A stretch of 64,000 nucleotides of DNA from Bacteroidota bacterium (GTDB taxonomy: Bacteria; Bacteroidota; Bacteroidia; Bacteroidales; SKPS01). Positions 30,421 to 64,000 of this stretch are shown here, one piece after another. The notes under the pieces are model-generated. The model saw only the letters and a program-made list of their open reading frames with translations, did not search any database and was not told the origin of the DNA. A program made the position numbers and the translations under genes. The stretch covers positions 24,881 to 88,880 of the forward strand of contig JAKLII010000001.1 of NCBI GenBank assembly GCA_022709695.1. Reading direction: 5' to 3'. Position 1 is the first letter of the stretch. Every line of letters starts with the position of its first letter.

Positions 30421-30477
30421 CTTCCTGACGTATCATGCAAATATAACGTTTACAAAGGGTGCCTGTTACATCCTGTG

Positions 30478-30509
30478 AAAAAAAAAGTCCCGATGGCCAT
30501 CGGGACTTT
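30478..30509 (-). terminator. Rho-independent terminator of hup
   Basis: On the minus strand: GTCCCGAT-ggcc-ATCGGGAC stem (30487-30506) followed by T9 (plus-strand A9 at 30478-30486), 23 nt after the hup stop. Confidence 0.85.
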
Positions 30510-30531
30510 CAGAATTCCACAAGAAGCGGAA

Positions 30532-37364: not shown

Positions 37365-37598
37365 ACATTTTTTTTTACGGATAGCGTGATACTGTCATTG
37401 CAGCATCATTTCGTTATTACCTATTCAGCCGTATCCAATTGCGATCATGATAATTCTGGCCAATCAACGAATCGGATGCTGCATGTTGATTGATGACAGA
37501 TTACCCCAGCAAAAAAATCCATCCACCCACATCAATTTCTGAAAAAAATGATTAAATTACCATCAGAAAAATGATCAATATCTAATCAAATCTTTCTT

Positions 37599-37661
37599 GG
37601 ATCAAGGATCAACGTTCAAATATCAAAACAACAACAAACAACAAACAACAAACAACAAAAG
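37599..37661 (+). repeat. Nine phased heptamers forming the leader of the polymerase gene
   Basis: GGATCAA GGATCAA CGTTCAA ATATCAA AACAACA ACAAACA ACAAACA ACAAACA ACAAAAG, then ATG at 37662. This contains (CAACAAA)x4 perfect at 37632-37659. The first 17 nt are identical to 772-788. Confidence 0.9.
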
Positions 37662-40601
37662 ATGCTCTTCGCCCACTCATACTACAGCCTCCGCTACGGC
37701 ACGTTGTCGCCGGAGCAGCTGGTACACCAGGCCCGGGCGCTGGGGCATGAGGTGCTGGTGCTTGCCGACATCAACAACAGCAGTGGGTTTCCGGAGTTTG
37801 TGAAGGAGTGCATGGAGGCGGGCATCACCCCTGTGGCCGGCATCGAATTCCGCCGGAAGGGGCGTTATCTCTGGACCGGCCTCGCCCGCAACGGCGATGG
37901 CATGCAGGAGCTCAACGAATTTCTGAGCCGGCACAATATTGAAGACCTTCCCCTTCCCGACCGGGCGCCCGCCTTTTCTGAGACGTACGTGGTGTACCCG
38001 ATGCAGGGGTTTGGCACGGCAGGGTTGCGAGACAACGAATACATCGGCGTTACACCGCAGGAGCTGCGGAAAAATCCGATGGCGCTGCAGGGCAGGATGT
38101 CAGAGCGCTACCTGCTGCGTGCGCCGGTGTCGTTCGGCACGCCGCAGCAGTACGAGGTGCACCGCAACCTGCGGGCCGTGGACATGAACACCCTCATCTC
38201 CAGGCTCACGCCATCCGACACCGCGTCGCCGGAGGACCTGCTGGTGCCGCCCGATGCCGTACGCAGCCTGTCGGCAGGGGCGCCCTGGCTCCTCAGCAAC
38301 ACCCTGAAGCTGCTGTCGGACTGCCACCTCAGCCTCGACTTCGGCACCATCAAAAACCGGCAGACCTTCACCGGCAACCGCTACGACGACAAGCTGCTGC
38401 TGGAGAAGCTGGCGATGGACGGACTGAAACACCGCTACGGCGCCCGCAACCGCACCGCACGGCAGCGGGTGGTGCATGAGCTGGAGATCATCGACCGCCT
38501 GGGCTTTGCATCGTACTTCCTTATCACCTGGGATATCGTGCGGTATTCGATGTCGCGGGGGTTCTACCACGTGGGCAGGGGCAGCGGCGCCAACAGCGTG
38601 GTGGCCTACTGCCTGATGATCACCAACGTGGATCCCATCGAGCTGGACCTCTACTTCGAACGGTTCCTCAACCCGCGCCGCTCCACCCCGCCCGACTTCG
38701 ACATCGACTATTCGTGGAAGGAGCGCGACGAGGTGCAGGACTACATCTTCAAACGCTACGGGCACCGTCACACCGCCCTGCTGGGTGCCACCTCCACGTT
38801 TAAGGACAAATCGATCTACCGGGAGCTGGGCAAGGTGTACGGGCTGCCCAAAGGGGAGATTGACGCCCTGGTGGAGCGCCCCGCCGACCCGGCAAACCAT
38901 AATGCCATTACGCTGAAGATCATCCGGCTGGCGGAACATATCGCCGACTTCCCCAACATCCGCAGCATCCACGCAGGAGGCATTATTGTATCGGAGGAGC
39001 CCATTACCCGTTACACAGCCCTGGACATGCCACCCAAGGGGTTTCAGACCACACAGTGGGATATGTATGTGGCTGAGGAGCTGGGATTTGAGAAGTTCGA
39101 CATCCTGAGTCAGCGCGGCATCGGCCACATCCGCGATGCCGCCCTCATCGTGAAGCAGAACCGGGGCGAGGCGGTGGATGTGTACGACATCCCCCGGTTC
39201 AAGAGCGACCCTGCCGTGCAGGCACAATTGAAACAGGGAGAGTGCAACGGCTGCTTCTACATCGAGAGCCCGGCCATGCGGGGGCTGCTGAAGAAGTTGC
39301 GCTGCAGCGATTACCTCACCCTGGTGGCCGCCAGCTCCATCATCAGGCCCGGTGTGGCAAAGTCGGGGATGATGAAGGAATACATCCGCAGGTTTCATAA
39401 CCCAAAGGGATTCAGCTACATACACCCCGTGATGGAGGAGCAGCTGAAGGAGACCTATGGCGTGATGGTATATCAGGAGGATGTGCTGAAGATCTGCCAC
39501 CACTTCGCCGGACTTGACCTGGGTGACGCCGACGTGCTGCGCAGGGCCATGAGCGGCAAGGGGCGCGGGAAGAAGGAATTCCGGCTGATTGTGGAGAAGT
39601 TCTTCGACAACTGCCGGCGGTTCGGCTATCCCAAGGCCACTACGCAGGAGGTGTGGCGTCAGATCGAATCGTTTGCCGGGTATTCGTTCTCCAAGGCGCA
39701 TTCGGCCTCCTATGCGGTGGAGAGTTTTCAGAGCCTGTGGCTCAAGGTGCATTACCCGCTGGAGTTCATGGTGGCGGTGATCAACAATTTCGGCGGTTTT
39801 TACCGCACATGGGTCTATTTCAACGAGGCGCGGCGATGGGGAGCCACGCTGGCGCTCCCCTGTGTGAACCTCAGCGGATATCTCACCACCATTTCGGGCA
39901 CCACCATCTATGCCGGCTTCATCCACATCGCAGGGTTGGAGGAGAAACTGGCAAAGCGGCTGGTGCAGGAGCGTGAGGAGCATGGCGATTATCTTTCGCT
40001 GGAGGATTTCGTGCAACGGGTGACGCCAACCCCCGAACAGCTCACCCTGCTGATCCGTGTGGGAGCCTTCCGGTTCACCGGAAAGGGAAAAGCGCCGCTG
40101 TTGTGGGAGAGCCGTATGCTCATCAGCCACCGGCAGCCGGAACCAGCCACTGCCCGGCTGTTTCCGCTTACCACCCGCCCCTTCACGCTGCCCGCGCTGG
40201 TGCACGACCCGCTGGAGGATGCCTGGGATGAGATGGAGCTATTGGGGTTCCCCATCTCTGTGTCGTGGTTCGATATGCTCGAAACCCGCTATCGAGGCGA
40301 TATTGCCGCCCACGGGCTGGCCGGCAGGGTGGGGCAGGAGGTACGGATGCTGGGAAAGCTCGTTACCATCAAATACGTATGGACCGTCCGTAAAGAGATC
40401 ATGCACTTCGGTACGTTTATCGATGTGCACGGCGAATTCTTCGATACGGTGCATTTTCCGCCCTCATTGAAGAACAACCCTTTCCGGGGCGAGGGAATTT
40501 ACCTGCTGCGCGGCAGAGTGGTGGAGGAATTCGGATTTCCGTCGGTGGAAATTTCACACATGGCCAAAATGCCGTTGAAACCCGACCCGCGGGGGAAATG
40601 A
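37662..40601 (+). CDS. DnaE-family DNA polymerase III alpha-like protein, short form (DnaE2/ImuC-like), orphan
   Basis: 979 aa. It has an N-terminal PHP domain (MLFAHSYYSLRYGTLSPEQLV...VLADINNSSGF), a pol III alpha core (GRGSGANSVVAYCL, FERFLNPRRSTPPDFDIDY, AGYSFSKAHSASYA), an HhH region and a C-terminal OB fold. No imuA/imuB-like genes are adjacent. Confidence 0.85.
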   Translation: MLFAHSYYSLRYGTLSPEQLVHQARALGHEVLVLADINNSSGFPEFVKECMEAGITPVAGIEFRRKGRYLWTGLARNGDGMQELNEFLSRHNIEDLPLPDRAPAFSETYVVYPMQGFGTAGLRDNEYIGVTPQELRKNPMALQGRMSERYLLRAPVSFGTPQQYEVHRNLRAVDMNTLISRLTPSDTASPEDLLVPPDAVRSLSAGAPWLLSNTLKLLSDCHLSLDFGTIKNRQTFTGNRYDDKLLLEKLAMDGLKHRYGARNRTARQRVVHELEIIDRLGFASYFLITWDIVRYSMSRGFYHVGRGSGANSVVAYCLMITNVDPIELDLYFERFLNPRRSTPPDFDIDYSWKERDEVQDYIFKRYGHRHTALLGATSTFKDKSIYRELGKVYGLPKGEIDALVERPADPANHNAITLKIIRLAEHIADFPNIRSIHAGGIIVSEEPITRYTALDMPPKGFQTTQWDMYVAEELGFEKFDILSQRGIGHIRDAALIVKQNRGEAVDVYDIPRFKSDPAVQAQLKQGECNGCFYIESPAMRGLLKKLRCSDYLTLVAASSIIRPGVAKSGMMKEYIRRFHNPKGFSYIHPVMEEQLKETYGVMVYQEDVLKICHHFAGLDLGDADVLRRAMSGKGRGKKEFRLIVEKFFDNCRRFGYPKATTQEVWRQIESFAGYSFSKAHSASYAVESFQSLWLKVHYPLEFMVAVINNFGGFYRTWVYFNEARRWGATLALPCVNLSGYLTTISGTTIYAGFIHIAGLEEKLAKRLVQEREEHGDYLSLEDFVQRVTPTPEQLTLLIRVGAFRFTGKGKAPLLWESRMLISHRQPEPATARLFPLTTRPFTLPALVHDPLEDAWDEMELLGFPISVSWFDMLETRYRGDIAAHGLAGRVGQEVRMLGKLVTIKYVWTVRKEIMHFGTFIDVHGEFFDTVHFPPSLKNNPFRGEGIYLLRGRVVEEFGFPSVEISHMAKMPLKPDPRGK

Positions 40602-40605
40602 TCAT

Positions 40606-40662
40606 TTCCGGATTTTATCGCACACGGATCAAACGGATTTTACGAATTAACACGGATTATAA
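40606..40662. repeat. Short tandem ACGGAT-type 9-10 bp word repeats
   Basis: CGGAT/CGAAT words start at 40609, 40625, 40634, 40643 and 40653 (tccggatttta, cacggatcaa, aacggatttt, acgaattaa, cacggattat). They lie between the polymerase stop and the GxxExxY stop. Confidence 0.7.
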
Positions 40663-40672
40663 ACATTATTAT

Positions 40673-41080
40673 TCAAAACCTGGTCATGGGTTTTTGGGAC
40701 TTCCTGTCGTTTGTGAAGATCTTTCTCCTGAATTCCGGATTCTTGCCAAAATTCAACAGAAGCCCAACTTCTTTATCTGTTGCTTTCAAATAGTTGATTA
40801 ATTGCAGTTCATTTTCTTTAATCAGACACTCTGATGCTTTAAGCTCAACTATTATGGTATCCTCGACAATAATGTCGGTAAAGTATTCACCAACAGTAAT
40901 GTTATTGTAATAGACATTGATCTTCTTTTGTTTATCTGCTTTGAGGCCTTGCTCTTTCAACTCCACCAGTATGGCATTTTCATAGACTTTTTCCAGGAAA
41001 CCAAAATCAAGCGTGTTGTAAACTTTAAAAAAGCAATTCAGTATTCTATTTGTCAATTCCTTGTGCAAGAGATCATTCAT
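40673..41080 (-). CDS. GxxExxY-family protein (PD-(D/E)XK nuclease-like fold)
   Basis: 135 aa. The GFLEKVYENAL signature (G-x-x-E-x-x-Y) and the ...IIVELKA...QLINYLKAT...GLLLNFG blocks are typical of the family. Confidence 0.85.
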   Translation of the reverse strand: MNDLLHKELTNRILNCFFKVYNTLDFGFLEKVYENAILVELKEQGLKADKQKKINVYYNNITVGEYFTDIIVEDTIIVELKASECLIKENELQLINYLKATDKEVGLLLNFGKNPEFRRKIFTNDRKSQKPMTRF

Positions 41081-41136
41081 GGTCGCGGCATGTCTTTAAT
41101 CCATTTTTAAGCAAAATGCACTGGTTTACAATAAAC

Positions 41137-41415
41137 AATCAGTGATCATCAGTTGCAACCGTAAAATCAGTGTTCAATGATTGTTTTCTAATCCTATAAA
41201 TGATTGAAAACAGAAAAACGGAGATTATCAATCAATTTTTTCAGCAGATTTCCCTGAGGGGTATTAAGTATTACTTCAGATCCCCGTAATAAGTGATGCT
41301 AATGGAAGACTGATGCCACCGATACAACGGATAAACACACATTTTATAGAACGGATTCATTATTGTGTTTTTAGTAAATCAGCGATCATCCGTTACATCG
41401 GTGTTGACCGTGTTC
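41137..41415. repeat. Dispersed word repeats: two ~39-bp AATCAGYGATCATCMGTT... copies plus ACGGAT words
   Basis: 41137-41175 and 41377-41415 match at 28 of 39 positions by eye. ACGGAT occurs at 41327 and 41351, and the inverted ATCCGT at 41388. Confidence 0.6.
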
Positions 41416-41532
41416 TATTCCTTATGAAGTTCGCATAGATGCCATAACAGGATTAAGTGAAGTTCCTGCGGTGAACATATAGAAGTCTCCTTTGGCAGCA
41501 TGCAGATGTCGGAAGGCAGCTCAGTTCCGGCA

Positions 41533-54330: not shown

Positions 54331-56850
54331 ATGAAATCAATAAAGCTATTTTCCCCATGGATATGCCTGATGTGTGTTGTAATCTTTTCAGGCTGTTCCC
54401 GTGAAAAAGAAAAATATTTCACCTCCCTTGATACAAACGCCTGGTTCCTGTATCACGGGAGCAATCCGGTAAATGCCGGAAAGGCCGGAGAGCGGAATTG
54501 TTACAGGTTTCTGTATGATGCAGAGGGCAGGGTTAAGGAAATTACCTATCTTAAAGCCGGCCTTGCAGCCATCAATCCGGAAACGGATTTCCACAGGGCA
54601 GTGTATACGTATACCGAAGGTTTCATCGATGTAGCTTTCTATGATCATCTGGGTAACCTTACCAAATCGGAAGATGGAGCAGCCAAACTGCGATACCGCC
54701 TCGACGCGGACGGGCATTTAAAAGCGCTCTATTATTATGGTGTCCAGGGAAGAATGACCCGCAATAAAACGGGGGTGTTTCAGTATGCATTCACCACCGA
54801 CAAAAAGGGGAACGTGGTTGCTGCGGTTTCTAAGGACCCTGATGGAAACAGAATGCCTGGTGAATCAGGGGTTTGGGAAACCCGTTCAACCTATTCACGG
54901 GAAGGGTATCTGACGAAGGTGCAGTTTATCGGCCCTGACGGCGAACCCATGACCAATCGTACCTCCGGTGTTGCTGAGATCAGGTATACCTATGATTCAA
55001 AGGGTATCAGAACCGAAGAGCGGTATTTCGACCTGAATGGGAAAAAAGCTGTTGAAAGCGGAACCGGGATACATGCCTTACGCTACGATCTGGATGGTGA
55101 CGGACAGCCTGTTCGGGAAACGGTGATGGATACTGAAGGCAAGCCTTTTAACAGACTGGATGAAAAGTGGGCTATTCATGAATTTGTGCGCAACAAAAGG
55201 GGGAATGTCGTTGAAGAAAAATTTCTGGGTTCTGATGGGAGTATAATTGAGTTACCGGAGTCAGGGATTAGCAGTTTGAAACTAAAGTATGATAGGCATA
55301 ATCAGATAGTTGAATTATCCTATCTGGATTCACTGGGAAAACTTAAAGGATTCAGGGGGAAAGGTTATGCAAAAATTGAAAATCAGTATGATGCACAGGG
55401 CTTGCTGATCAGGCAGAGGTATTTCGGTGACGATGGCAAGCTGAGGGAGAGGATCGACAACAGGATTGCCTCTGCGGAATTCACCTACGATGAAAAGGGT
55501 AACAAAACCACTGCACGGTACTATAACCTGGATGGTAAGCCGAAAGAGTCAGCTGACAAAAGAGTGACCGGGGAGGATTGCCGGTATGACGTATGGGGCA
55601 ACCTTGTCAGCCGCACCTGGACAGGAACCAACGGAGGGGCAAAAGTGGCAAAAGACTATGGCTATGCAACTGTCAGAATCGACTACGATTCAAGTGGCCA
55701 TATCGCTCAGGAGCAATATTTCGATGAATCCGGAAACCCGGTTAACCTGCCGGGCAAGGGCATTTCGAAGGTGAAGAAAAAATACAACCGGCTCCAGCAA
55801 GTGACAGAGATTTCATACTATGATCCATTGGGTAATCCGGCAATGCATCTCGAAAAAGGGTATGCTGCCATCAGATACACCTATTCTGTTCATAATAAAG
55901 TAGATATGGAATGGTATCTGGATGCCGCGGGTCAGCCGGTGACCTCGAATGACGGGGTTGCAGCAATTAAATACGGATACAATGTTTACGGTGATTTAGC
56001 CGAAAAGAGCTTTTACGATGTCTCCCGCCAGCCTGTGGAGCCATCCAGCAACGGAGGGATCCATAAGTACAGATTCTCCTATGATGCGTATGGCCATCAG
56101 ACCGAAATAGCTTATTTCAACCGGAATGATCAGCGGATTCAGCCTGCTTCACGTGATGGAATGGCACGCATCAACTATTCCTATGATTTATATGGACGCA
56201 TTATTGGCGAGGCCTACTTCGATACTGCGGGCAATGCCTGCCTATCGTCAAAAACCGGAATAGCAGGATTGTTCAACGAATATGACCATGATGGTAACCT
56301 AATAAAGATTAGTAGCTTTGGATTGGATGGCAGACCTCAGAATGACATTATTGCCGGTATAGCAACCCAGATCAGAAAGTATAAGAACGGACGAAAAATT
56401 GAGGCGAGATTCTTTGATAAGGATGGTAAACCGGCTCCGAAGCTCAATGACCGGTCTGCGGCCAGGATCGTATGGAGCTATAGTGCAAAAGGGGATGTAT
56501 TTAAAGAGACCCTGTATGATGCTGAAGGAAAGATGTGGGCTGATCCGGAGGATGGGGCTGCCGGGTATGAAGAAATCACTGACCGGTATGGCAATGTATT
56601 GGAAATGAGGTGGTATGGCCCTGATGGAAAACTGTTGCAGGTCAATAGCAGCGATTATGCAATTCTGCGACAGACCTATGACCTTTGGAATAATCTGATT
56701 ACGGAGGAATACCTGGATGCGGATGGTAAACTCATGCCTTACAGTTCAAAAGTACAATACGACTACAATGAGTACAACGAAAAGATCAGGACAACAGTCT
56801 TCGATGCAAATGGCAGGGTGGTATCCCGTACCGAAGGTGCCTCGTCGTAG
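54331..56850 (+). CDS. Lipoprotein made of ~24 copies of a 33-residue YD-like repeat
   Basis: Lipobox VIFSGC. The repeat consensus is roughly a-x-h-x-Y-x-Y-D-x-x-G-N-h-x-E-x-x-Y-F-D-x-x-G-K-P-x5-G. Examples are AEIRYTYDSKGIRTEERYFDLNGKK and ARINYSYDLYGRIIGEAYFDTAGN. Confidence 0.8.
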   Translation: MKSIKLFSPWICLMCVVIFSGCSREKEKYFTSLDTNAWFLYHGSNPVNAGKAGERNCYRFLYDAEGRVKEITYLKAGLAAINPETDFHRAVYTYTEGFIDVAFYDHLGNLTKSEDGAAKLRYRLDADGHLKALYYYGVQGRMTRNKTGVFQYAFTTDKKGNVVAAVSKDPDGNRMPGESGVWETRSTYSREGYLTKVQFIGPDGEPMTNRTSGVAEIRYTYDSKGIRTEERYFDLNGKKAVESGTGIHALRYDLDGDGQPVRETVMDTEGKPFNRLDEKWAIHEFVRNKRGNVVEEKFLGSDGSIIELPESGISSLKLKYDRHNQIVELSYLDSLGKLKGFRGKGYAKIENQYDAQGLLIRQRYFGDDGKLRERIDNRIASAEFTYDEKGNKTTARYYNLDGKPKESADKRVTGEDCRYDVWGNLVSRTWTGTNGGAKVAKDYGYATVRIDYDSSGHIAQEQYFDESGNPVNLPGKGISKVKKKYNRLQQVTEISYYDPLGNPAMHLEKGYAAIRYTYSVHNKVDMEWYLDAAGQPVTSNDGVAAIKYGYNVYGDLAEKSFYDVSRQPVEPSSNGGIHKYRFSYDAYGHQTEIAYFNRNDQRIQPASRDGMARINYSYDLYGRIIGEAYFDTAGNACLSSKTGIAGLFNEYDHDGNLIKISSFGLDGRPQNDIIAGIATQIRKYKNGRKIEARFFDKDGKPAPKLNDRSAARIVWSYSAKGDVFKETLYDAEGKMWADPEDGAAGYEEITDRYGNVLEMRWYGPDGKLLQVNSSDYAILRQTYDLWNNLITEEYLDADGKLMPYSSKVQYDYNEYNEKIRTTVFDANGRVVSRTEGASS

Positions 56851-56924
56851 TTGTATCCCCGCTTAACCCTTTGAAATACTGCCATCGAAAACTCATTCAA
56901 TGAATGTTTACAGAAATGCACGAT

Positions 56925-58238
56925 ATGAAGACACGATTTTTGTCACTGCTGTTTTGGATTTCGTTAATCTTATGGGCAGGTTGCGGAAGAAATAATCCTA
57001 TCGCCTTCAGGCATATGGAGACCAATGGATATGGGGATTTTACCGGGCGTTATCCAGTGGAATCGGCCGACACCGGGAAAGTGGCGTGTTACACGGTAAC
57101 CTATGACGAAGAAGGGAGAATTTCAGGCTGGAGATACCTGAAAGGTGGGATGTTGGCTATTGATCCCATTTTCAATGTGGCCTCTGCATCCTGTGAAAGA
57201 GACAAGGAAAGGGTAAAAACCAGCTATTTCGATCTCTATGGAACCCTGTGCGCAAATTTCGAAGGGGTATTTATGACCGAAAGGGTGCTGAGTCCGGAAG
57301 GTTTTCCGGTAAGTGAAACCAATCTTGACCGGGATGGAAAAGCCATGGCCGACAGCAGAGGGGTCACTACATACCGCTATACCACAGATCCGGAAGGGCG
57401 CATTATCACCTCCCGGTTTTATGGCTCTGATGGTGCACCTGTGGCCAATACATACGGAGTGGAAGAACACAGGTACAGTTACACCAAAGAGGGGTGGTAC
57501 AGTGATGTGCAGTATTTTTCGAAAGAGGGAAAACCGGTGCTGCACAACGAACAGAAATATGCCCGCATTCATTGGGAATATGATAAAAAGGGGAATAAAA
57601 CGGTTGAATCCTACTATGATGAAATGGATTCCCTGAGCGAGAAAACAGCAACGGGAGTTGCCCGGATTCAACTGGACTATGACCAGAATGGGTATCGTTA
57701 TGCGCTCAGGTGCCAGGGGAAAGATGGCCTGCCCAAAAGGAACACCAGCTGGCAAACTGCATCTATCATCCAGGAATATGATTCGGCCGGCAATATCCTG
57801 CTTGCCAGGTACCTTGGGACAGACGACCTGCCTGAGGTGATCAGGGAACCTTCATGGATGGAGGTTGCGTTTGTGTATGATGCATTTGGGAATCAGGTTG
57901 AACGCAGGCATCTGGATGCCAGTGGAAATCTGGTGATGGTCAGCGATTTTGGGTATGCCATGTTGCGGCAACGCTTCGATGACCACCGCAACATTGTTGA
58001 AAAACAGTATTTTGGTGCTGACGGAGTTCTGATCGATTTCCTGGGTTACGGTTATGCGATTCACCGAATGCAATACGACAGCAAGGGGCGACTGACAGAA
58101 GAGAGCCTTTTTGGTACCGATGGCAAACCTGTCAACCAGGTGCCTTCCGGGGCTTCGGTTTACAGGTACACCTACGATGAGGAGGGCAGAAGGACAGGTA
58201 CAACCCGGTTGGATGCAAACGGAGCGGTGGTGGAATAG
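56925..58238 (+). CDS. Paralogous lipoprotein with ~12 copies of the same 33-residue YD-like repeat
   Basis: Start trimmed to MKTRFLSLLFWISLILWAGC (lipobox). Example repeats are VTTYRYTTDPEGRIITSRFYGSDGAP and SVYRYTYDEEGRRTGTTRLDANGA. Confidence 0.8.
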   Translation: MKTRFLSLLFWISLILWAGCGRNNPIAFRHMETNGYGDFTGRYPVESADTGKVACYTVTYDEEGRISGWRYLKGGMLAIDPIFNVASASCERDKERVKTSYFDLYGTLCANFEGVFMTERVLSPEGFPVSETNLDRDGKAMADSRGVTTYRYTTDPEGRIITSRFYGSDGAPVANTYGVEEHRYSYTKEGWYSDVQYFSKEGKPVLHNEQKYARIHWEYDKKGNKTVESYYDEMDSLSEKTATGVARIQLDYDQNGYRYALRCQGKDGLPKRNTSWQTASIIQEYDSAGNILLARYLGTDDLPEVIREPSWMEVAFVYDAFGNQVERRHLDASGNLVMVSDFGYAMLRQRFDDHRNIVEKQYFGADGVLIDFLGYGYAIHRMQYDSKGRLTEESLFGTDGKPVNQVPSGASVYRYTYDEEGRRTGTTRLDANGAVVE

Positions 58239-58252
58239 ATTACCTTTGCCCC

Positions 58253-59392
58253 ATGCTCGCCAACAAATCAGATGTAAAGGGATCGTGGATCGGGTATTTC
58301 AGCAACCTGGTGAAGACCTACGGGGGGATCAATATGGCACAGGGGATTCCGGGGTTTCAGCCGCCGGAGGAGCTGCTCGATATCCTGGCGGAGATCAGAA
58401 ACGAACCCATTCATCAGTATGCCCCAGGCACGGGGAACCTGGAGCTGCTGCGGTGCCTGCGGATGCGCTACCAGGGGCGATACAACCCCGATGAAGCCGG
58501 TTTCTTCATCCTCAACGGCGCTACCGAGGCGATTTCGCTGGTGTACACGATGCTGTACCACCACTTGGGGAGTAACCTCCGGCCCATGGCCCTGTCGCCG
58601 GCCTACGAATCGTACCTCTACCTGCCCGCCATCTTTCATCATCAGGTGCACCTTGTCACCATGCCGGAACAGCCTGCAATGCTGCCAGCCCTGCTCGAAC
58701 AGGAAATCCGGGAACACTGCATCAATCTGCTGTTTCTCTCTTCCCCGGGAAATCCGTGGGGTAGAGTGATTCCGAAAGAGACCCTTGCAGAAATCATCCG
58801 GATTTGTGAAGCCAACCGCTGCAACCTGATCCTGGATGCAGTGTACAGTGAACTTTATTTCGGTGAAAAGAAACCCGATTATCCGCTTGACGGGATCAGT
58901 GAGTACGTGTTCTATGTGAATTCCTTTTCCAAACTGCTCTCGGTAACCGGCTGGCGACTGGGTTACCTGCTGGCGCACCATTCCCATTTCGATGCATTGA
59001 AAGGGATCCACGACTACATCGGGTTAAGCTCTCCGGCTCCGCTGCAGGCCGCCATTGCCGCGTTTATGCAAAACCCGGATCATGTGAATGGATATGCTGC
59101 CTCGATACGGGGGATTATTCGTCAGAACTTCCTGAAATTCAGTCCGATGCTTCAGCAGGCAGGGTTTTACCTTCCACCGCATGATGGCGGGTATTTTATC
59201 TGGTGCCGGTGCCCCGATCATATCCCTTCTGGAACCGATTTCGCAGTAGATCTTTACAACAAGACCCAAACGGCTATCATCCCGGGAATCCATTTCGGGA
59301 GGGATTGGGAGCGGTATATCCGGATCAATATCGCGCAGCCGGCTGAACTTTTAACTGAAGGGTTTGTACATATCATTGATGCTGTTAGATAG
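58253..59392 (+). CDS. Class I/II PLP-dependent aminotransferase (YbdL/kynurenine-aminotransferase-like)
   Basis: 379 aa with INMAQGIPGFQPP, HQYAPGTGN, SPGNPWG and the PLP-lysine block NSFSKLLSVTGWRLGY. Confidence 0.85.
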   Translation: MLANKSDVKGSWIGYFSNLVKTYGGINMAQGIPGFQPPEELLDILAEIRNEPIHQYAPGTGNLELLRCLRMRYQGRYNPDEAGFFILNGATEAISLVYTMLYHHLGSNLRPMALSPAYESYLYLPAIFHHQVHLVTMPEQPAMLPALLEQEIREHCINLLFLSSPGNPWGRVIPKETLAEIIRICEANRCNLILDAVYSELYFGEKKPDYPLDGISEYVFYVNSFSKLLSVTGWRLGYLLAHHSHFDALKGIHDYIGLSSPAPLQAAIAAFMQNPDHVNGYAASIRGIIRQNFLKFSPMLQQAGFYLPPHDGGYFIWCRCPDHIPSGTDFAVDLYNKTQTAIIPGIHFGRDWERYIRINIAQPAELLTEGFVHIIDAVR

Positions 59393-59432
59393 AACACAGA
59401 TGAAACTGATGGGACTGGTTTCCGATGATTAT

Positions 59433-59633
59433 TTCTCGCAGAAAACGCGGAAACTACGCAGATATCCGCAGAAGTTATTTATTTTTTCAGCGTCTTTCCG
59501 CGAAATTTCAGCGAATTTCAGCGAGAGAAAAAATTTCACGCAGAAACCTCGCGGAAATCCGCAGAAACATTTTTTCAGCGCCACTTGTGCTGAGCTTGTC
59601 GAAGCATCAGTGAAATTTCCTGCGAGAAACTTC
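59433..59633 (+). repeat. Modular intergenic repeat, locus R1 (A-C-A-B-C', partly degenerate)
   Basis: Contains TTCTCGCAGAAAACGCGGAAACTACGCAGATATCCGCAGAAG. It also has ...GCGAAATTTCAGCGAATTTCAGCGAGAGAAAAAAT and CTCGCGGAAATCCGCAGAAAC. CCACTTGTGCTGAGCTTGTCGAAGCA lies at 59581-59606. Confidence 0.9.
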
Positions 59634-59666
59634 TATGGATAAAAATATCTGAAGTATAATAAATCC

Positions 59667-62357
59667 GTGAAAATCATAAAGATCAGCGTTATCAGCGTTC
59701 TATTGGTCTTCAACATTGGTGCAAAAGCCCAACCTGCTGAGCAGCGCCCCGACCCGGAATGGCTCAGAACCTACGTGTCCGGCGATTTCTGCTGGGCCTA
59801 CGACGTACAGGTGGATCAGGCCGGCAACAGTTACTCCACCGGCTACTTCCAGAGAAACCTGAAACTGGCCCAGGGAAAATACATTGAACCCAAAACCACA
59901 TGCTATGCCCGTTGCCCCGACACCTGGTTTCTGATGAAGCACGACCCCAACGGCAACCTGCTGTGGGTCCGTTACGCCGAAGGGAACTCCAGGCCAGCCC
60001 GCATCGCCATTGATCCCAACGGCTTTATCTGGGTAGCCGGTAATTTCTATGGCGGAAAAGTGGATTTTATCACCGCCGATGACAGAAAGCTTACCCTGAA
60101 TGGGACAGAGGGTTTAAACTCTTCTTTGTTCATTGCCCATTACAACTCTAATGGGGAGCTGCTGCATCTGATCATGCCCAGGATTGATTTCGAGGTTGAG
60201 TTATTTGATTTCAGGGGAGATATGGAGGGTAATTTTTATCTGGCCGGAGCAAAACTCTTCAGAACCTACGATAAAACCTATGAAGTAAAGCGCACCTTTG
60301 CCCTGCTGTCGTACGACCAGGAGTTCCATCTCCGGTGGAGCCTCCTGGGTGATACGGTTGGACAATCCCATATCAATGCAGTATGTGCTGATAATCAGGG
60401 GAATGTGATAGCTACCGGAGGTTTTCATGACGACATCAGGATTGGAAAGAGCCAGTTTACCACGAGGGATTACAATGCCATGACCTTTGCTTTCAAAGCC
60501 AATCGCAAGGGTGATGTGGAATGGGCGATCGACTCACTGGGGATCTATACCAACGGAGCCGGGGCATCGATGGCGCTGAACAGTAAAGGGGATGCGTTTA
60601 TTGTAACTACCTCATCCTACAGCCGAACATGCCTGAACCGCATCAGCAGCAGGGGTAAACCCGAATGGTCGGTACCCATCAATGGCAAGGCATCGGTGTA
60701 CCACGAAAGGTTGCTGCTGGACAAAGAGGAGCGGATCTGGCTGGCAGGAGAGGGGTATGGTTTCGATGTTGTTTCGAAGAATGAAACTATTACAACGTTG
60801 AGCTCAAAGGGTGGGACTGATCCGTTTATGCTGCACTTTTCGGCCGATGGCAACCTGTTACAGGCCCTCAGCGGGGGTGGGGCAGGCACCGATTACCTGA
60901 AGGCGATTGCGCTGAAAGACGACAAATTGCTGGCTTTCGGGTGGTTTGGCGGAGATATGGTATTCGGGGACACAGTTGTAAAAACCCGCGATGGCTATAT
61001 CTTCTGGATCGGACAGTTCAGCACGTTGCCCGGGGCTGCAAATCCATTTCCCAGGCAGCCTGTGGAGCCTGGGGCGAACCTTTCGGATACCACATGGAAC
61101 AGCGACCTCTGCACCTGCACTTACCACCGGGAGAAGCGGACCGTGTTTTACCCGTCCCTGGACGCCCTTCTGGAATACGACGATTTCAACGAGTATTCGG
61201 GATGGAGCCAGGATCCACTTCTTCAGAATTATAAGAATCTCTATTACAGAGATTTTCAGTTTTCAACCAGTTCGCACGGAGGATTTTATTCCCTGGTGCT
61301 GGCCTCTTTCAGAAACCCGGTAGTATTTCATCATCCGTCAAATACCTTCGGAATTGATTTTACCCCATGTGTCAACAACCTGAAAATCTACGAGTTGCCG
61401 ATAACACTCAGCTATGAATTTCCGTATGCCCGGTATTTTGAAGATCTTGAAAATGGGTTCGACAGGTCGGCGGCAGCGTGGTTCGATTTCTGGCAGGAGG
61501 TGAATCAGATCGGTGTGGAGGAATTGGCAGAATCAATGGATCTTGCCCCATGGCTTGCGGCAGTGGCGGAGAACGATCTTGAGAAGCTCGGAACGGCCAT
61601 GGCGGATGATGGGTATATTCTTGATCTGGAGGGACTTGAAACATACACCGTGCCTGAGGTGAATGCCCGCATGGAAACCGGGGAAATTGCGCTGCTGATC
61701 TCTTCTGACATCCTGCGGCAGCACGATCCGGTTACCGGTGCGCTGCTGCTGAATGAGGAGGGAAAACCTGCCCGGGCGAGGATCCTGGCGAAGGTCGAAG
61801 AGCTGACCTATTCCACAGAGAGCTCACTGCAGGCAACCTTCGGTGAGATCTGTATGCCCTGGGCTGAGATAGGCACCTCAGGAATGCAGATCCAGTTCAA
61901 CACCGCATCGATTGTCAGCACACCGGAGCAACTGTATTACGATCCGTATTCGATTGATGGTCCGGGGTTTCCTGAAAGAAGCCAGAATGGTGCATACGAT
62001 GAGGAGGAGCTGCCGGAAGCTGCACAGAATACACCGAATGTGCTGGATAATTTCACCGGAATTTCTGTGGACGATGCAGTGATACATTGGCCCTTTGCCG
62101 GAAAAATGCTGGAAGGCTGGGGTTCAGGATTTCTGATCAACAATCAGATGTTATGCGGCCTGATCATGCTTCCGCTTTCTGACAACCAGCCGTCGGATTC
62201 AGACAGCAGTGTCGTGTTGCTGGCCGGTGAAGAGGAGGTTTATACTTCACTTCAGGATCTGCAGAACTGGCTGAAGATAAATGGTTTTGATGTTGCCAGG
62301 TTTCATCCGCTGGAAAGTGAACTTGCCATCTATATCGAAATGAAAAGCAAATACTAA
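59667..62357 (+). CDS. Secreted hypothetical protein: N-terminal SBBP-like beta-propeller repeats, acidic C-terminal half of unknown fold
   Basis: 896 aa with a GTG start and signal peptide MKIIKISVISVLLVFNIGAKA|QP. Recurrent blocks are DQAGNSYSTGYF, DPNGFIWVAGNFYGG, DMEGNFYLAG and DNQGNVIATGGF. There is no T9SS tail. Confidence 0.7.
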   Translation: MKIIKISVISVLLVFNIGAKAQPAEQRPDPEWLRTYVSGDFCWAYDVQVDQAGNSYSTGYFQRNLKLAQGKYIEPKTTCYARCPDTWFLMKHDPNGNLLWVRYAEGNSRPARIAIDPNGFIWVAGNFYGGKVDFITADDRKLTLNGTEGLNSSLFIAHYNSNGELLHLIMPRIDFEVELFDFRGDMEGNFYLAGAKLFRTYDKTYEVKRTFALLSYDQEFHLRWSLLGDTVGQSHINAVCADNQGNVIATGGFHDDIRIGKSQFTTRDYNAMTFAFKANRKGDVEWAIDSLGIYTNGAGASMALNSKGDAFIVTTSSYSRTCLNRISSRGKPEWSVPINGKASVYHERLLLDKEERIWLAGEGYGFDVVSKNETITTLSSKGGTDPFMLHFSADGNLLQALSGGGAGTDYLKAIALKDDKLLAFGWFGGDMVFGDTVVKTRDGYIFWIGQFSTLPGAANPFPRQPVEPGANLSDTTWNSDLCTCTYHREKRTVFYPSLDALLEYDDFNEYSGWSQDPLLQNYKNLYYRDFQFSTSSHGGFYSLVLASFRNPVVFHHPSNTFGIDFTPCVNNLKIYELPITLSYEFPYARYFEDLENGFDRSAAAWFDFWQEVNQIGVEELAESMDLAPWLAAVAENDLEKLGTAMADDGYILDLEGLETYTVPEVNARMETGEIALLISSDILRQHDPVTGALLLNEEGKPARARILAKVEELTYSTESSLQATFGEICMPWAEIGTSGMQIQFNTASIVSTPEQLYYDPYSIDGPGFPERSQNGAYDEEELPEAAQNTPNVLDNFTGISVDDAVIHWPFAGKMLEGWGSGFLINNQMLCGLIMLPLSDNQPSDSDSSVVLLAGEEEVYTSLQDLQNWLKINGFDVARFHPLESELAIYIEMKSKY

Positions 62358-62362
62358 AGACC

Positions 62363-62507
62363 TTTTTTCTCGCAGAAATCCGCAGACAGCACGCGGAAAT
62401 CCGCAGAACCTTATTTCAGCGTCTATCTGCGAAATTTCAGCGAATTTCAGCGAGAGAAAAAATATTCTCGCAGAAATCCGCAGTAAGTTCGCGGAAATCC
62501 GCAGAGA
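62363..62507 (+). repeat. Modular intergenic repeat, locus R2 (A-A-C-A-A, no B module)
   Basis: TTTTTTCTCGCAGAAATCCGCAGACAGCACGCGGAAATCCGCAGAACCTTATTTCAGCGTCTATCTGCGAAATTTCAGCGAATTTCAGCGAGAGAAAAAATATTCTCGCAGAAATCCGCAGTAAGTTCGCGGAAATCCGCAGAG. Confidence 0.92.
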
Positions 62508-62513
62508 TCATTC

Positions 62514-62891
62514 TCATAAACCATTAACAATTCGCTGAATCGAGTGTAGTATATTGGCTGTGTTGAAGTTAATCAGTAATCCAAGCTTTTTATCAGAAAG
62601 CTTCAGGTACGTTAAAAGTTGCTTGCTGTGCACATCTGTGAGCTGTTCAACTGATTTGATTTCAACGATCACTTTGTTTTCTACAAGCAGGTCTATCCGA
62701 TATCCAACATCAAGTTTAACATCTTCATAAACAAGCGGCAGAGGCACCTGCGAATTAACAATCAAGCCATTTTTACTGATAAGGTGCTTTAAAACAGATT
62801 CATAACTCGATTCAAGTAATCCTGGCCCAAGTTCCTTATAGGTAGTATAAACTGCGCCACGGATGATGTACGAAATTTCATTTTCAGTCAT
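62514..62891 (-). CDS. GxxExxY-family protein (PD-(D/E)XK nuclease-like fold)
   Basis: 125 aa with the GLLESSYESVL signature and ...VIVEIKSV...QLLTYLKLSDKKLGLLINFN. It is a paralogue of 40673-41080. Confidence 0.85.
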   Translation of the reverse strand: MTENEISYIIRGAVYTTYKELGPGLLESSYESVLKHLISKNGLIVNSQVPLPLVYEDVKLDVGYRIDLLVENKVIVEIKSVEQLTDVHSKQLLTYLKLSDKKLGLLINFNTANILHSIQRIVNGL

Positions 62892-62965
62892 AAGTTTTTA
62901 TTGTATATATGATTGAGCTTTCAAAAAAGGAGACAGGTAAGGTACTTTTTAAAAATAATCATGAT

Positions 62966-63020
62966 TCTTTCTGCGAATTTCCGCGTAATTTCACCGAGTT
63001 TCTGCGAGAAAAAAAATCAC
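62966..63020 (+). repeat. Modular intergenic repeat, locus R3 (degenerate C module only), abutting the MBL start codon
   Basis: TCTTTCTGCGAATTTCCGCGTAATTTCACCGAGTTTCTGCGAGAAAAAAAATCACG aligns to the C module TCTGCGAAATTTCAGCGAATTTCAGCGAGAGAAAAAAT. It ends 1 nt before ATG 63022. Confidence 0.7.
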
Positions 63021-63021
63021 G

Positions 63022-63726
63022 ATGAAAACCTTCACTACAAAATCGGGTTACCAAATCATTCAGCTGTTAAGTGGCCGTGCCAATGTATGGCTCGTGGAAG
63101 CCGGTTCAATCCGCATTCTGGTAGATACCGGGATCACCCTCAACCGCAAAAAACTCCTCAACAAGCTCAATCCCGAATCGCTTCGCTCCCGGGACTCCGC
63201 TTCGCTCCGCCTCAACTTTCTCCTGCTGACCCACACCCATTTTGATCATTGTCAGAATGCAGCCTGGCTAAAGAACAGGTTAGGGTGTAAGATCATTGTC
63301 GGGGAGAGTGCGAAAGAGTTTGTCAGGATGGGGTACACACCGATCCCTGGTGGAGTAACCCGGTGGGCCAGGTTTGTTGTGAGGTTAGGGAGAAAGTTCA
63401 GGCCAGGATTTACAGGTTATGCTCCATTTCAGGCAGATATGATTGTGAAAGAGAAGTTTACATTTGCGCTGGAAGGGGTAAACCTGGAAATTATCCCTAC
63501 CCCAGGACACTCCTCCGATTCCATTTCCCTGCTGGTTGACGGTGAGGTAGCAATTGTTGGAGATACATTGTATGGGATGGTATCCGGGAAAGCCATGCCT
63601 CCGTTTGCAGATGATGTGCCGTTGTTGAAGCAGCAGTGGAAAGTATTGCTTGATACGGGTTGCCAATGGTTTTTGCCGGGACACGGAAAACCCATTTCTG
63701 CCGCTTTGCTGCAGAAATTCATTTAA
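63022..63726 (+). CDS. MBL-fold metallo-hydrolase
   Basis: 234 aa with the HxHxDH motif (LLLTHTHFDHCQN) and a later PTPGHSSDS block. Confidence 0.85.
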   Translation: MKTFTTKSGYQIIQLLSGRANVWLVEAGSIRILVDTGITLNRKKLLNKLNPESLRSRDSASLRLNFLLLTHTHFDHCQNAAWLKNRLGCKIIVGESAKEFVRMGYTPIPGGVTRWARFVVRLGRKFRPGFTGYAPFQADMIVKEKFTFALEGVNLEIIPTPGHSSDSISLLVDGEVAIVGDTLYGMVSGKAMPPFADDVPLLKQQWKVLLDTGCQWFLPGHGKPISAALLQKFI

Positions 63727-63740
63727 TACCCTGATTTTAT

Positions 63741-64000
63741 TTCTCGCGGAAATCCGCAGAACCTTATTTCAGCGCCACTTGTGCTGAGTTTGTCGAAGCA
63801 TCTGCGAAATTTCAGCGAATTTCAGCGAGAGAAAAAATATTCTCGCAGAAATCCGCAGAAAGCACGCGGAAATCCGCAGAATTTTATTTTAGCGCCACTT
63901 GTGCTGAGCTTGTCGAAGCATCAGCGAAATTTCAGCGAATTTCAGCGAGAGAAAAAATATTCTCGCGGAAATCCGCAGAACCTTATTTCAGCGCCACTTG
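63741..64000 (+). repeat. Modular intergenic repeat, locus R4: tandem array (100-bp unit, 120-bp unit, third unit cut by window end)
   Basis: Unit 1 is 63741-63840 (A-B-C). Unit 2 is 63841-63960 (A-A-B-C). Unit 3 starts at 63961 and is identical to unit 1 as far as the window shows. Confidence 0.92.

Follow-up and report, generated by a model that had tools for sequence, protein, structure and literature searches.

Junction palindromes as meeting points of intergenic repeat elements in a Bacteroidota genome, and the probable link of these elements to a predicted Cas4/RecB-like GxxExxY nuclease

The stretch of 64,000 nucleotides (nt) analyzed here, referred to below as the window, comes from a member of the Bacteroidales (Bacteroidota bacterium, GenBank assembly GCA_022709695.1, contig JAKLII010000001.1, positions 24,881 to 88,880 of the forward strand) and carries, at positions 62437-62484, an imperfect palindrome that lies within a cluster of short intergenic repeats. 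This palindrome is not an independent unit but the contact of one repeat element's right arm (C) with the left arm (A) of its successor. The contact at 62437-62484 is between a gene-less element (62368-62455) and an element that carries the gene 62514-62891, whose product belongs to the GxxExxY (PF13366) family. With a probability of roughly 0.6, the elements form a repeat family similar to repetitive extragenic palindromic (REP) sequences and MITEs (miniature inverted-repeat transposable elements), which is linked to a Cas4/RecB-like nuclease and whose abutting ends make up the junctions. A nuclease-linked repeat family of this kind, found across phyla, appears to be undescribed: the literature yielded no description of either the association of GxxExxY genes with repeats or of these unit repeats.

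Architecture of the elements and their junctions

Each arm is an array of two to four phased units with the core CGCNGAAA, spaced 10 to 11 nt apart. The A arm has the form TCT-(CGCRGAAATC)n and the C arm the form (TTTCAGCGAA)n-GAGA; the two arms of one element are inverted relative to each other, its left outer end being TTTCTCGC and its right outer end GCGAGAAA. The centre between the arms consists of 6 nt, of a conserved 34-nt module B (TCAGCGCCACTTGTGCTGAGYTTGTCGAAGCATC), or of the GxxExxY gene. Clusters of at least three units occur in only four intergenic regions of the window, all within its last 4.6 kb. On the plus strand, with the number of units after each arm and a bar at each junction, these regions read A4-C4|A3-B-C2 (59432-59631), A4-CCTTAT-C4|A4 (62368-62508), C4 alone (62968-63013), and a tandem A-B-C array with a 120-nt period that continues beyond the end of the window (63742-64000). 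The individual features are as follows.

59432-59473: A arm of four units (TTTCTCGCAGAAAA CGCGGAAACTA CGCAGATATC CGCAGAA), left end of the first element, in the spacer between the aminotransferase gene and the gene for an 896-amino-acid (aa) protein
59485-59527: C arm of four units, ending in GCGAGAG
59528-59567: junction spacer AAAAAATTT and three-unit A arm, the degenerate junction copy
59575-59631: B module (TCAGCGCCACTTGTGCTGAGCTTGTCGAAGCATC), then a degenerate C arm ending in GCGAGAAA, 35 nt before the GTG start at 59667
62368-62455: complete gene-less element with A arm 62368-62408 (four units), centre CCTTAT, and C arm 62415-62455 (four units)
62437-62484: the junction palindrome in question, to which the C arm contributes its inner 19 nt and the next A arm its first 19 nt, with the spacer GAAAAAATAT (62456-62465) between them
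62466-62508: A arm of four units, terminal on the 3' side of the GxxExxY gene, whose stop codon lies 5 nt from the arm's end
62514-62891, minus strand: gene for the GxxExxY (PDDEXK_3) nuclease, 125 aa
62892-63013: 76-nt leader of the GxxExxY gene and C arm 62968-63013 (four units, ending in GCGAGAAAAA), terminal on the gene's 5' side
63742-63830: element A (two units)-B-C (three units), the first unit of the 120-nt tandem array, after the gene for a metallo-beta-lactamase (MBL)-fold protein
63812-63859: second exact junction palindrome, GCAG version
63841-63950: element A (four units)-B-C (three units), the second unit of the array
63932-63979: third exact junction palindrome, GCGG version
63961-64000: start of the third element (A arm of two units, then B), interrupted by the end of the window
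40673-41080, minus strand: a third, distant GxxExxY gene, 35% identical to the first, with periodic flanking repeats of its own

The C arm at 62968-63013 ends 8 nt before the ATG of the MBL-fold gene. Among the contigs and loci fetched for comparison (labeled with L-numbers), L001 carries the same genes and reaches past the end of the window; beyond the array it has a second GxxExxY gene with arms of its own and another C|A junction, after which the next 9 kb are free of further repeats. Assemblies of this locus disagree in how many 120-nt array units they contain and in the unit sequences (two units at 3540-3830 of L001, at least three at 63727-64000 of the window and at 10705-11065 of L002), which reflects either copy-number variation or assembly collapse, and another five contigs with this locus break off within the array or shortly after the MBL-fold gene.

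The placement of the element boundaries follows from copies that stand alone. Isolated elements (L026/L040, L093, L007, L010, and, with a B module, L159) read A-centre-C, with (T)TTTCTCGC as the left boundary and GCGAGA(G)AAAA as the right one, and C arms that end in GCGAGA and an A-run without a following A arm were found at 62968-63013 of the window and in L026, L074, L159, and L007. The junction is thus the meeting point of two element ends. A head-to-tail row of inverted-repeat elements has, besides the centres of the elements, a further set of palindromic centres, and the junction palindrome is accordingly a by-product of the placement of two palindromic elements one after the other. The same anatomy disposes of the dimeric operator proposed in the preliminary description, which would require the junction to be a unit, as well as of a CRISPR (clustered regularly interspaced short palindromic repeats) interpretation. 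An integron attC site was also considered and rejected, as no element boundary contains the R''/R' core sites (RYYYAAC / GTTRRRY).

As previously described, the junction is a 48-nt palindrome with 19-nt arms and a 10-nt loop, and it is present at 62437, 63812, and 63932: the 47-nt string TCAGCGAATTTCAGCGAGA-GAAAAAATAT-TCTCGCRGAAATCCGCAG has exact copies at these three positions of the window and an expectation of 0 in shuffled sequences. The degenerate copy reported at 59511-59560 was found as well (approximately 59509-59564), its degeneracy being due to the insertion of one additional A-type unit. The reported 16 of 19 pairs are formed where the last base is A; at 62437-62484 the last base is T and the count is 15 of 19. 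The GCGG version, which had been assigned to both array copies, is present at 63932 only, the sequence at 63812-63859 being GCAG. Three internal mismatches occupy identical positions in every copy. Around the first copy the palindrome extends further (62413-62508), with 43-nt arms that are 74% complementary. An 18-nt A-arm pattern allowing up to three mismatches had 14 matches, all within 59509-63978, against an expectation of 0.08. Folding of both strands, which had been proposed as a check, gave strong structures both ways and far better ones than shuffled sequence, with predicted RNA energies of -18.1 kcal/mol for the plus strand and -21.4 kcal/mol for the minus strand (z = -6.3 for each) and predicted DNA energies of -11.0 and -13.8 kcal/mol for the two strands. 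The minus strand folds slightly better because one A.C mismatch turns into G.U.

The B module (TCAGCGSCACTTGTGCTGAGYTTGTCGAAGCATC) is found at 59575-59608, 63769-63802, and 63889-63922 of the window, as well as in L038 and L159. It invariably lies between A and C arms in one orientation and is identical at 33 of 34 positions across different genomes. Its derivation from a GxxExxY element, as a remnant, was considered and rejected, no similarity having been found. A further repeated module (ATAAGTRCTTATGAWAAAATCACATAGC...) flanks A-C elements in L026 (2600-2950), L093 (4400-4750), and L159 (10190-10260); in L093 it is present on both sides as a direct repeat of approximately 50 nt.

The GxxExxY gene, its flanks, and its insertion

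The only open reading frame (ORF) of the gene-carrying element, 62514-62891 on the minus strand, matches PF13366 with 131 bits (cut-off 22) and TIGR04256 with 135 bits (cut-off 35), and the element encodes no recognized transposase. The second GxxExxY gene, found in L001, shares 86% identity with this one and is laid out likewise; the alignment of the two gene-carrying elements runs from the A arm through the gene to the C arm, and their homology stops directly after GCGAGA(G)AAAAAAT. In an alignment of GxxExxY proteins, residues E26, D66, E76, Q90, and Y94 are invariant and K78 is nearly so, giving the pattern E..D..ExK..QxxxY, the motif set of RecB/Cas4. An AlphaFold model of the protein has a predicted local distance difference test (pLDDT) score of 95.5. 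Its fold matches in the PDB are led by Cas4 SSO0001 (4ic1), followed by lambda exonuclease and LHK-Exo; these matches are weak (E ~1e-3, template modeling [TM] score of 0.56), and none of the PDB chains matched the protein at the sequence level. Judging from this model, the product is predicted to be a minimal Cas4/RecB/lambda-exonuclease-like PD-(D/E)XK fold. The family is large, with 7,949 relatives at E <= 1e-20 in a single search, and in the survey of PD-(D/E)XK proteins the function of PDDEXK_3 is listed as 'Unknown' (PMC3424549).

The association of the gene with inverted unit arrays extends well beyond the window. GxxExxY homologs were fetched through the protein alone; in five phyla, the genes have lineage-specific versions of such arrays. 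Three metagenome homologs with approximately 70% identity have four CGCNGAAA units upstream (A-type) and four TTTCNGCG units downstream (C-type). Two Petrimonas-like genomes contain compact elements (TTTCTCGCAGATT...ATG and TAA...ATCTGCGAGAAA), Bacteroides finegoldii has three inverted CACAGAGGA-type units per side, and the flanks in Bernardetia consist of CACAGAGA units. Gemmatirosa (Gemmatimonadota) carries near-perfect hairpins of three CGCAGAGGA units on both sides of the gene and a second paralog with CGCGGAT units. In Arachidicoccus and Empedobacter, complete A-centre-C hairpins flank the gene on either side. The units in a Fusobacteria plasmid and in Treponema are of the CACGGATT / AATCCGTG type, which is also seen at gene 40673-41080 of the window; Persicobacter, with GGGATT units, is an exception to the usual unit type.

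These impressions were quantified with two scores, which superseded an earlier count of 6-mers repeated on both sides that had proved too strict. When the upstream flank is compared with the downstream flank by a Smith-Waterman inverted-repeat score, the median is 36 at 15 GxxExxY loci and 17 at 191 control genes (95th percentile, 23; p = 4e-6). Within 200 nt on each side, the median number of CRCRGA units is 5.5 at 18 GxxExxY loci, compared to a mean of 0.77 at 189 controls (p = 1.4e-9), and the control genes with at least five such units include intergenic regions already known for gene-less elements. The units are oriented, with the forward orientation prevailing 30:11 upstream of GxxExxY genes and the reverse orientation 48:16 downstream. 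No GxxExxY gene was found near the loci that had been fetched through the repeats, so the gene is not an obligatory neighbor of every repeat copy; such an asymmetry is expected of a repeat family in which few copies carry the gene.

Arms and gene come and go together. One orthologous locus lies between the gene for a TPR-repeat protein and a TonB-receptor-like gene. Its spacer measures 28, 47, and 94 nt in three genomes, which have no GxxExxY gene there, and two others have at the same site a 490-bp insert that is exactly arm-gene-arm, the spacer remaining outside the arms being 6+11 nt or 0+15 nt. This comparison of empty and occupied sites identifies the arms and the gene as one inserted unit, and the gene-carrying form is a discrete insertion of approximately 0.5 to 0.65 kb. 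GxxExxY genes are also located between fabD and fabG in Sphingomonas and between hypF and hypC in Arachidicoccus, and an identical GxxExxY protein is encoded in different contexts in two strains of Empedobacter brevis. L164 contains a gene-carrying copy and, after it, a copy that lacks a 510-bp ORF-containing segment, which is bounded by the imperfect direct repeats TTTTCCGGCAAA and TTTCTGGTAAAA. An approximately 120-nt flank that includes a terminator hairpin (CCGCCGCAAGGCGG-T9) is present three times around these two copies (L164, 1-1180). At one of the three gene-less spacers compared above, in the locus of the Proteiniphilum saccharofermentans protein (L182, 2407-2500), the degenerate periodic units ATTTCAGGATTTCAAG ... 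CGTGAAATTGTGAAAT may be the relic of an element.

Dispersed gene-less copies number in the tens and lie mostly at the 3' ends of genes or in tight operon spacers. The Gemmatirosa hairpin occupies at least 79 places in two replicons of approximately 1 Mb each, and a second Gemmatirosa repeat family occupies 16. The B. finegoldii arm was found in nine Bacteroides records, including a gene-less hairpin of this type between gmd and the GDP-L-fucose synthase gene of B. ovatus. In another of these records, B. finegoldii NZ_OY725920 (L188, lptB/der spacer), CACAGAGGA-type arms enclose a 115-nt cargo with a canonical terminator hairpin; the element centre can thus hold different cargoes. A 20-mer scan of a genome collection detected related elements in one Lentimicrobiaceae metagenome-assembled genome only. 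Two pattern scans of viral contigs returned chance matches only, a tblastn search for GxxExxY in phage genomes gave no match, and a protein search with the translated array, aimed at spurious ORFs over repeat copies, had one match.

The third GxxExxY gene of the window (40673-41080) belongs to a region (40602-41430) with periodic flanks of its own, CACACGGATCAAACGGATTTTACGAATTAACACGGATTA downstream and AATCAGTGATCATCAG... and AAATCAGCGATCATCCGTTACATCGGTGTTGACCGTGTTC upstream; its repeats are of the CACGGATTA type at 40615-40660 and of the ATCAGYG type at 41136-41175 and 41376-41420. Its closest plasmid relative, from Fusobacteria bacterium ZRK30 (58% identity), has similar AATCAGTG...AATCCGTG flanks, which suggests that the gene and its repeats were transferred together.

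Pairing and the alternative explanations

Whether the hairpin itself is under selection can be judged from the substitutions among its copies, the check that had been proposed in the preliminary description along with the view that random, noncompensatory mismatches would speak against selection. In an alignment of 12 junction copies, 77% of the cells pair, a fraction that is not above that of shuffled alignments (53 of 500 reach it). Three of the 19 positions are unpaired in 11 or 12 copies, these mismatches being fixed, and a double-sided change was detected at only one of the 19 pairs (A-U to G-C, L055/L086). When 13 hairpins of the two kinds are compared, complementarity of the unit cores is found in every case; at the variable N position it is seen in 10 of 45 unit pairs (22%), which is the chance level, and at the linker positions in 55%, mostly owing to a shared AA. 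Since the cores pair and the variable positions do so at chance, the palindromy represents a conserved unit motif in inverted orientation, rather than the compensatory upkeep of a stem. The earlier statement that module C is essentially the reverse complement of module A holds for the unit cores only. By the standard set in the preliminary description, the hairpin as such is probably not the selected feature, with the caveat that the Gemmatirosa copies are nearly perfect palindromes.

These data make it unlikely that selection acts on the junction or on the A-centre-C hairpin as an RNA stem-loop that protects mRNA 3' ends or terminates transcription, as REP sequences do in enterobacteria. Such a role would fit the strong predicted folding of both strands (z from -4.8 to -6.3), the position of two clusters between convergent genes, and, on the minus strand, a mini-hairpin TGCGGATTTCYGCG followed by AGAATATTTT at each junction. 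It fits poorly with the lack of covariation just described and with the arms that occur alone and directly upstream of start codons. The absence of a U-tract after the stem, remarked on before, was confirmed: neither strand has a T-run after the 19-bp stem, and on the minus strand the T-tract is the loop itself. The A-centre-C hairpin, for its part, is preceded by a T-run and followed by an A-run whichever strand is read, an arrangement opposite to that of a terminator, and the count of terminator-like structures (6, versus 4.7 expected from shuffles) is not elevated. A canonical bidirectional intrinsic terminator present in the window at 30476-30512 (AAAAAAAAAGTCCCGATGGCCATCGGGACTTT) is quite unlike the A/C elements. 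Rfam had nothing at the gathering score in the whole window, and at a relaxed threshold the region 59300-64000 matched only hairpin-type models at the chance level.

Two other explanations would dispense with the nuclease. The mosaic clusters of alternating orientation resemble bacterial interspersed mosaic elements (BIMEs), and this analogy, drawn in part before, stands, extending to a nuclease gene flanked by repeats. It could mean that the repeats are REP sequences or REPINs (paired REP sequences) recognized as single-stranded DNA hairpins by an HUH/Y1-type REP-associated tyrosine transposase (RAYT) encoded elsewhere in the genome, the link to GxxExxY being incidental. We regard this as very unlikely: the feet of the elements are TTTCTCGC and GCGAGAAA, not GTAG or CGTC (CGTC is confined to the interior of some outer C units and does not occur in the array copies), the Pfam lists of genes beside the repeats in the fetched loci contain no Y1_Tnp family, and the recurrent neighbor, located inside the arms at a site that is empty in related genomes, is the GxxExxY gene. 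Atypical flanking structures have been reported for RAYT subclass 2.6 of Bacteroidetes (PMC6006769), which makes a hidden RAYT conceivable, although nothing here points to one. Quite unlikely, too, is that the arrays merely provide phased duplex sites for a host regulator or nucleoid protein, or DNA curved by phased A-tracts, with no role for mobility or a nuclease. The spacing of 10 to 11 nt, the A-tract in each unit, and the conservation of sequence cores rather than pairing are what such sites would show. However, arms and gene are present or absent as one block in related genomes, the unit sequences are lineage specific and change together with the GxxExxY subfamily, tens of dispersed copies occupy mostly gene 3' ends and tight operon spacers, and the units of other lineages can be 9 nt apart and free of A-tracts, as in CACAGAGGA.

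A mobile repeat family linked to the nuclease remains the preferred interpretation, and its mechanism could be as follows. The phased units would serve as recognition sites of the cognate GxxExxY nuclease, which would mobilize or maintain the elements, much as RAYTs do for REP sequences and REPINs or transposases for MITEs. Head-to-tail clustering, by insertion beside existing copies or by local duplication, would then generate the junction palindromes as a by-product. That the nuclease both recognizes the units and mobilizes the elements has, in our estimate, nearly even odds. More tentatively still, and with odds somewhat short of even, GxxExxY proteins may be the dedicated nucleases of an undescribed cross-phylum class of REP/MITE-like elements, whose ends are inverted arrays of phased 9- to 11-nt units, often with the core CRCRGA, and each subfamily may recognize a unit sequence specific to it and mobilize its own cassette along with gene-less hairpins.

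Several observations weigh against this interpretation. In Arachidicoccus and Empedobacter, the gene lies between complete hairpins and not within one, and arms are not clear at every locus: Prevotella nigrescens (L170) has no clear arms and Sphingomonas (L171) has one. Binding or cutting of the arms by the nuclease is presumed, and no PD-(D/E)XK nuclease of comparable size is known to transpose DNA alone. Alternatively, the arms may serve expression or insulation, as signals carried along with the gene. No target-site duplication or direct repeat outside the arms was seen in the comparison of occupied and empty sites, where diverged flanks could hide short ones. The repeats of the window are confined to one 4.6-kb cluster, which leaves genome-wide dispersal in this organism unproven. 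Finally, a metagenome scan with a three-unit pattern retrieved mostly unrelated tandem arrays with a period of 10 to 11 nt and only approximately 10 truly related loci among the matches listed.

Several features lie outside these subjects. The unrelated 10- to 11-nt tandem arrays belong to families from other organisms (L015, L022, L050, L082, L090; L029, L034, L046, L054, L088, and others), two examples being GTCAGCGATATGTCAGCGATTTGTCAGCGGCATTTCAGCGCAATTTCAGCGAGG, just upstream of an ORF, and TCAGCGCGATTTCAGCGCGATTTCAGCGCAATTTCAGAGC. Upstream of the repeat cluster, the region 54331-58238 contains large ORFs of 839 aa and 444 aa, the latter with an RHS-repeat match, and the 896-aa secreted protein (59667-62357) has weak matches to beta-propeller repeats. 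Intergenic tandem arrays of heptamers (GGATCAA, ATAACTC, CTRCCGA, and AACAACA, four copies each) are located at 758-880 and 37590-37660; the AACAACA array directly precedes the ATG at 37662, and the motif GGATCAAGGATCAACG is common to both sites.

Significance and comparison with known systems

If the proposed link is correct, it would provide a concrete, testable role for GxxExxY (PF13366), a large family named by its motif only, and would show that outside Proteobacteria a non-HUH nuclease fold can be the partner of REP-like intergenic repeats. The arrays also explain recurrent breaks in metagenome assemblies, several contigs ending within them. Small insertions are now recognized inside conserved operons of much-studied gut Bacteroides, as at gmd / GDP-L-fucose synthase in B. 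ovatus; Sphingomonas (fabD/fabG) and Arachidicoccus (hypF/hypC) provide further cases. Such insertions could alter the expression of neighboring genes.

The closest parallel is with the REP/BIME-RAYT systems ('REPtrons' and REPIN doublets), with which the elements share short imperfect extragenic palindromes of alternating orientation in mosaic clusters, lineage-specific families, and a few nuclease genes flanked by cognate repeats next to many dispersed gene-less copies. They differ in that the protein is a predicted PD-(D/E)XK nuclease of the Cas4/RecB type rather than an HUH/Y1 enzyme, the GTAG/CGTC foot is absent, each arm consists of two to four phased units of 9 to 11 nt instead of a single stem, non-core positions are not kept complementary, and the gene can sit inside one element. 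With MITEs and their parent transposons with terminal inverted repeats (Correia, RUP, Nezha), they have in common terminal inverted repeats, intergenic insertion, occupied and empty sites, and small noncoding derivatives that share their ends with a longer gene-carrying form, including the gene-less derivative in L164. Unlike in MITEs, no target-site duplication was detected here and the ends are built of phased sub-repeats, and unlike in the parents of MITEs, the protein is not a recognized transposase (no DDE, serine or tyrosine recombinase, or HUH domain).

The intervening sequences of 23S rRNA genes of the Leptospira type likewise carry a small ORF between inverted repeats; it encodes a four-helix bundle, and the repeats are processing stems for RNase III. 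They resemble the elements described here in having an ORF of approximately 120 codons bracketed by inverted repeats at several genomic sites, and differ in residing inside rRNA genes and in encoding another protein family. The GxxExxY protein, in turn, shares with Cas4, RecB, and lambda exonuclease the predicted fold (best Foldseek match, 4ic1, a weak structural match) and the catalytic pattern E..D..ExK..QxxxY; unlike them, it is only approximately 125 aa long, has no Fe-S cluster domain, and is encoded outside any CRISPR context.

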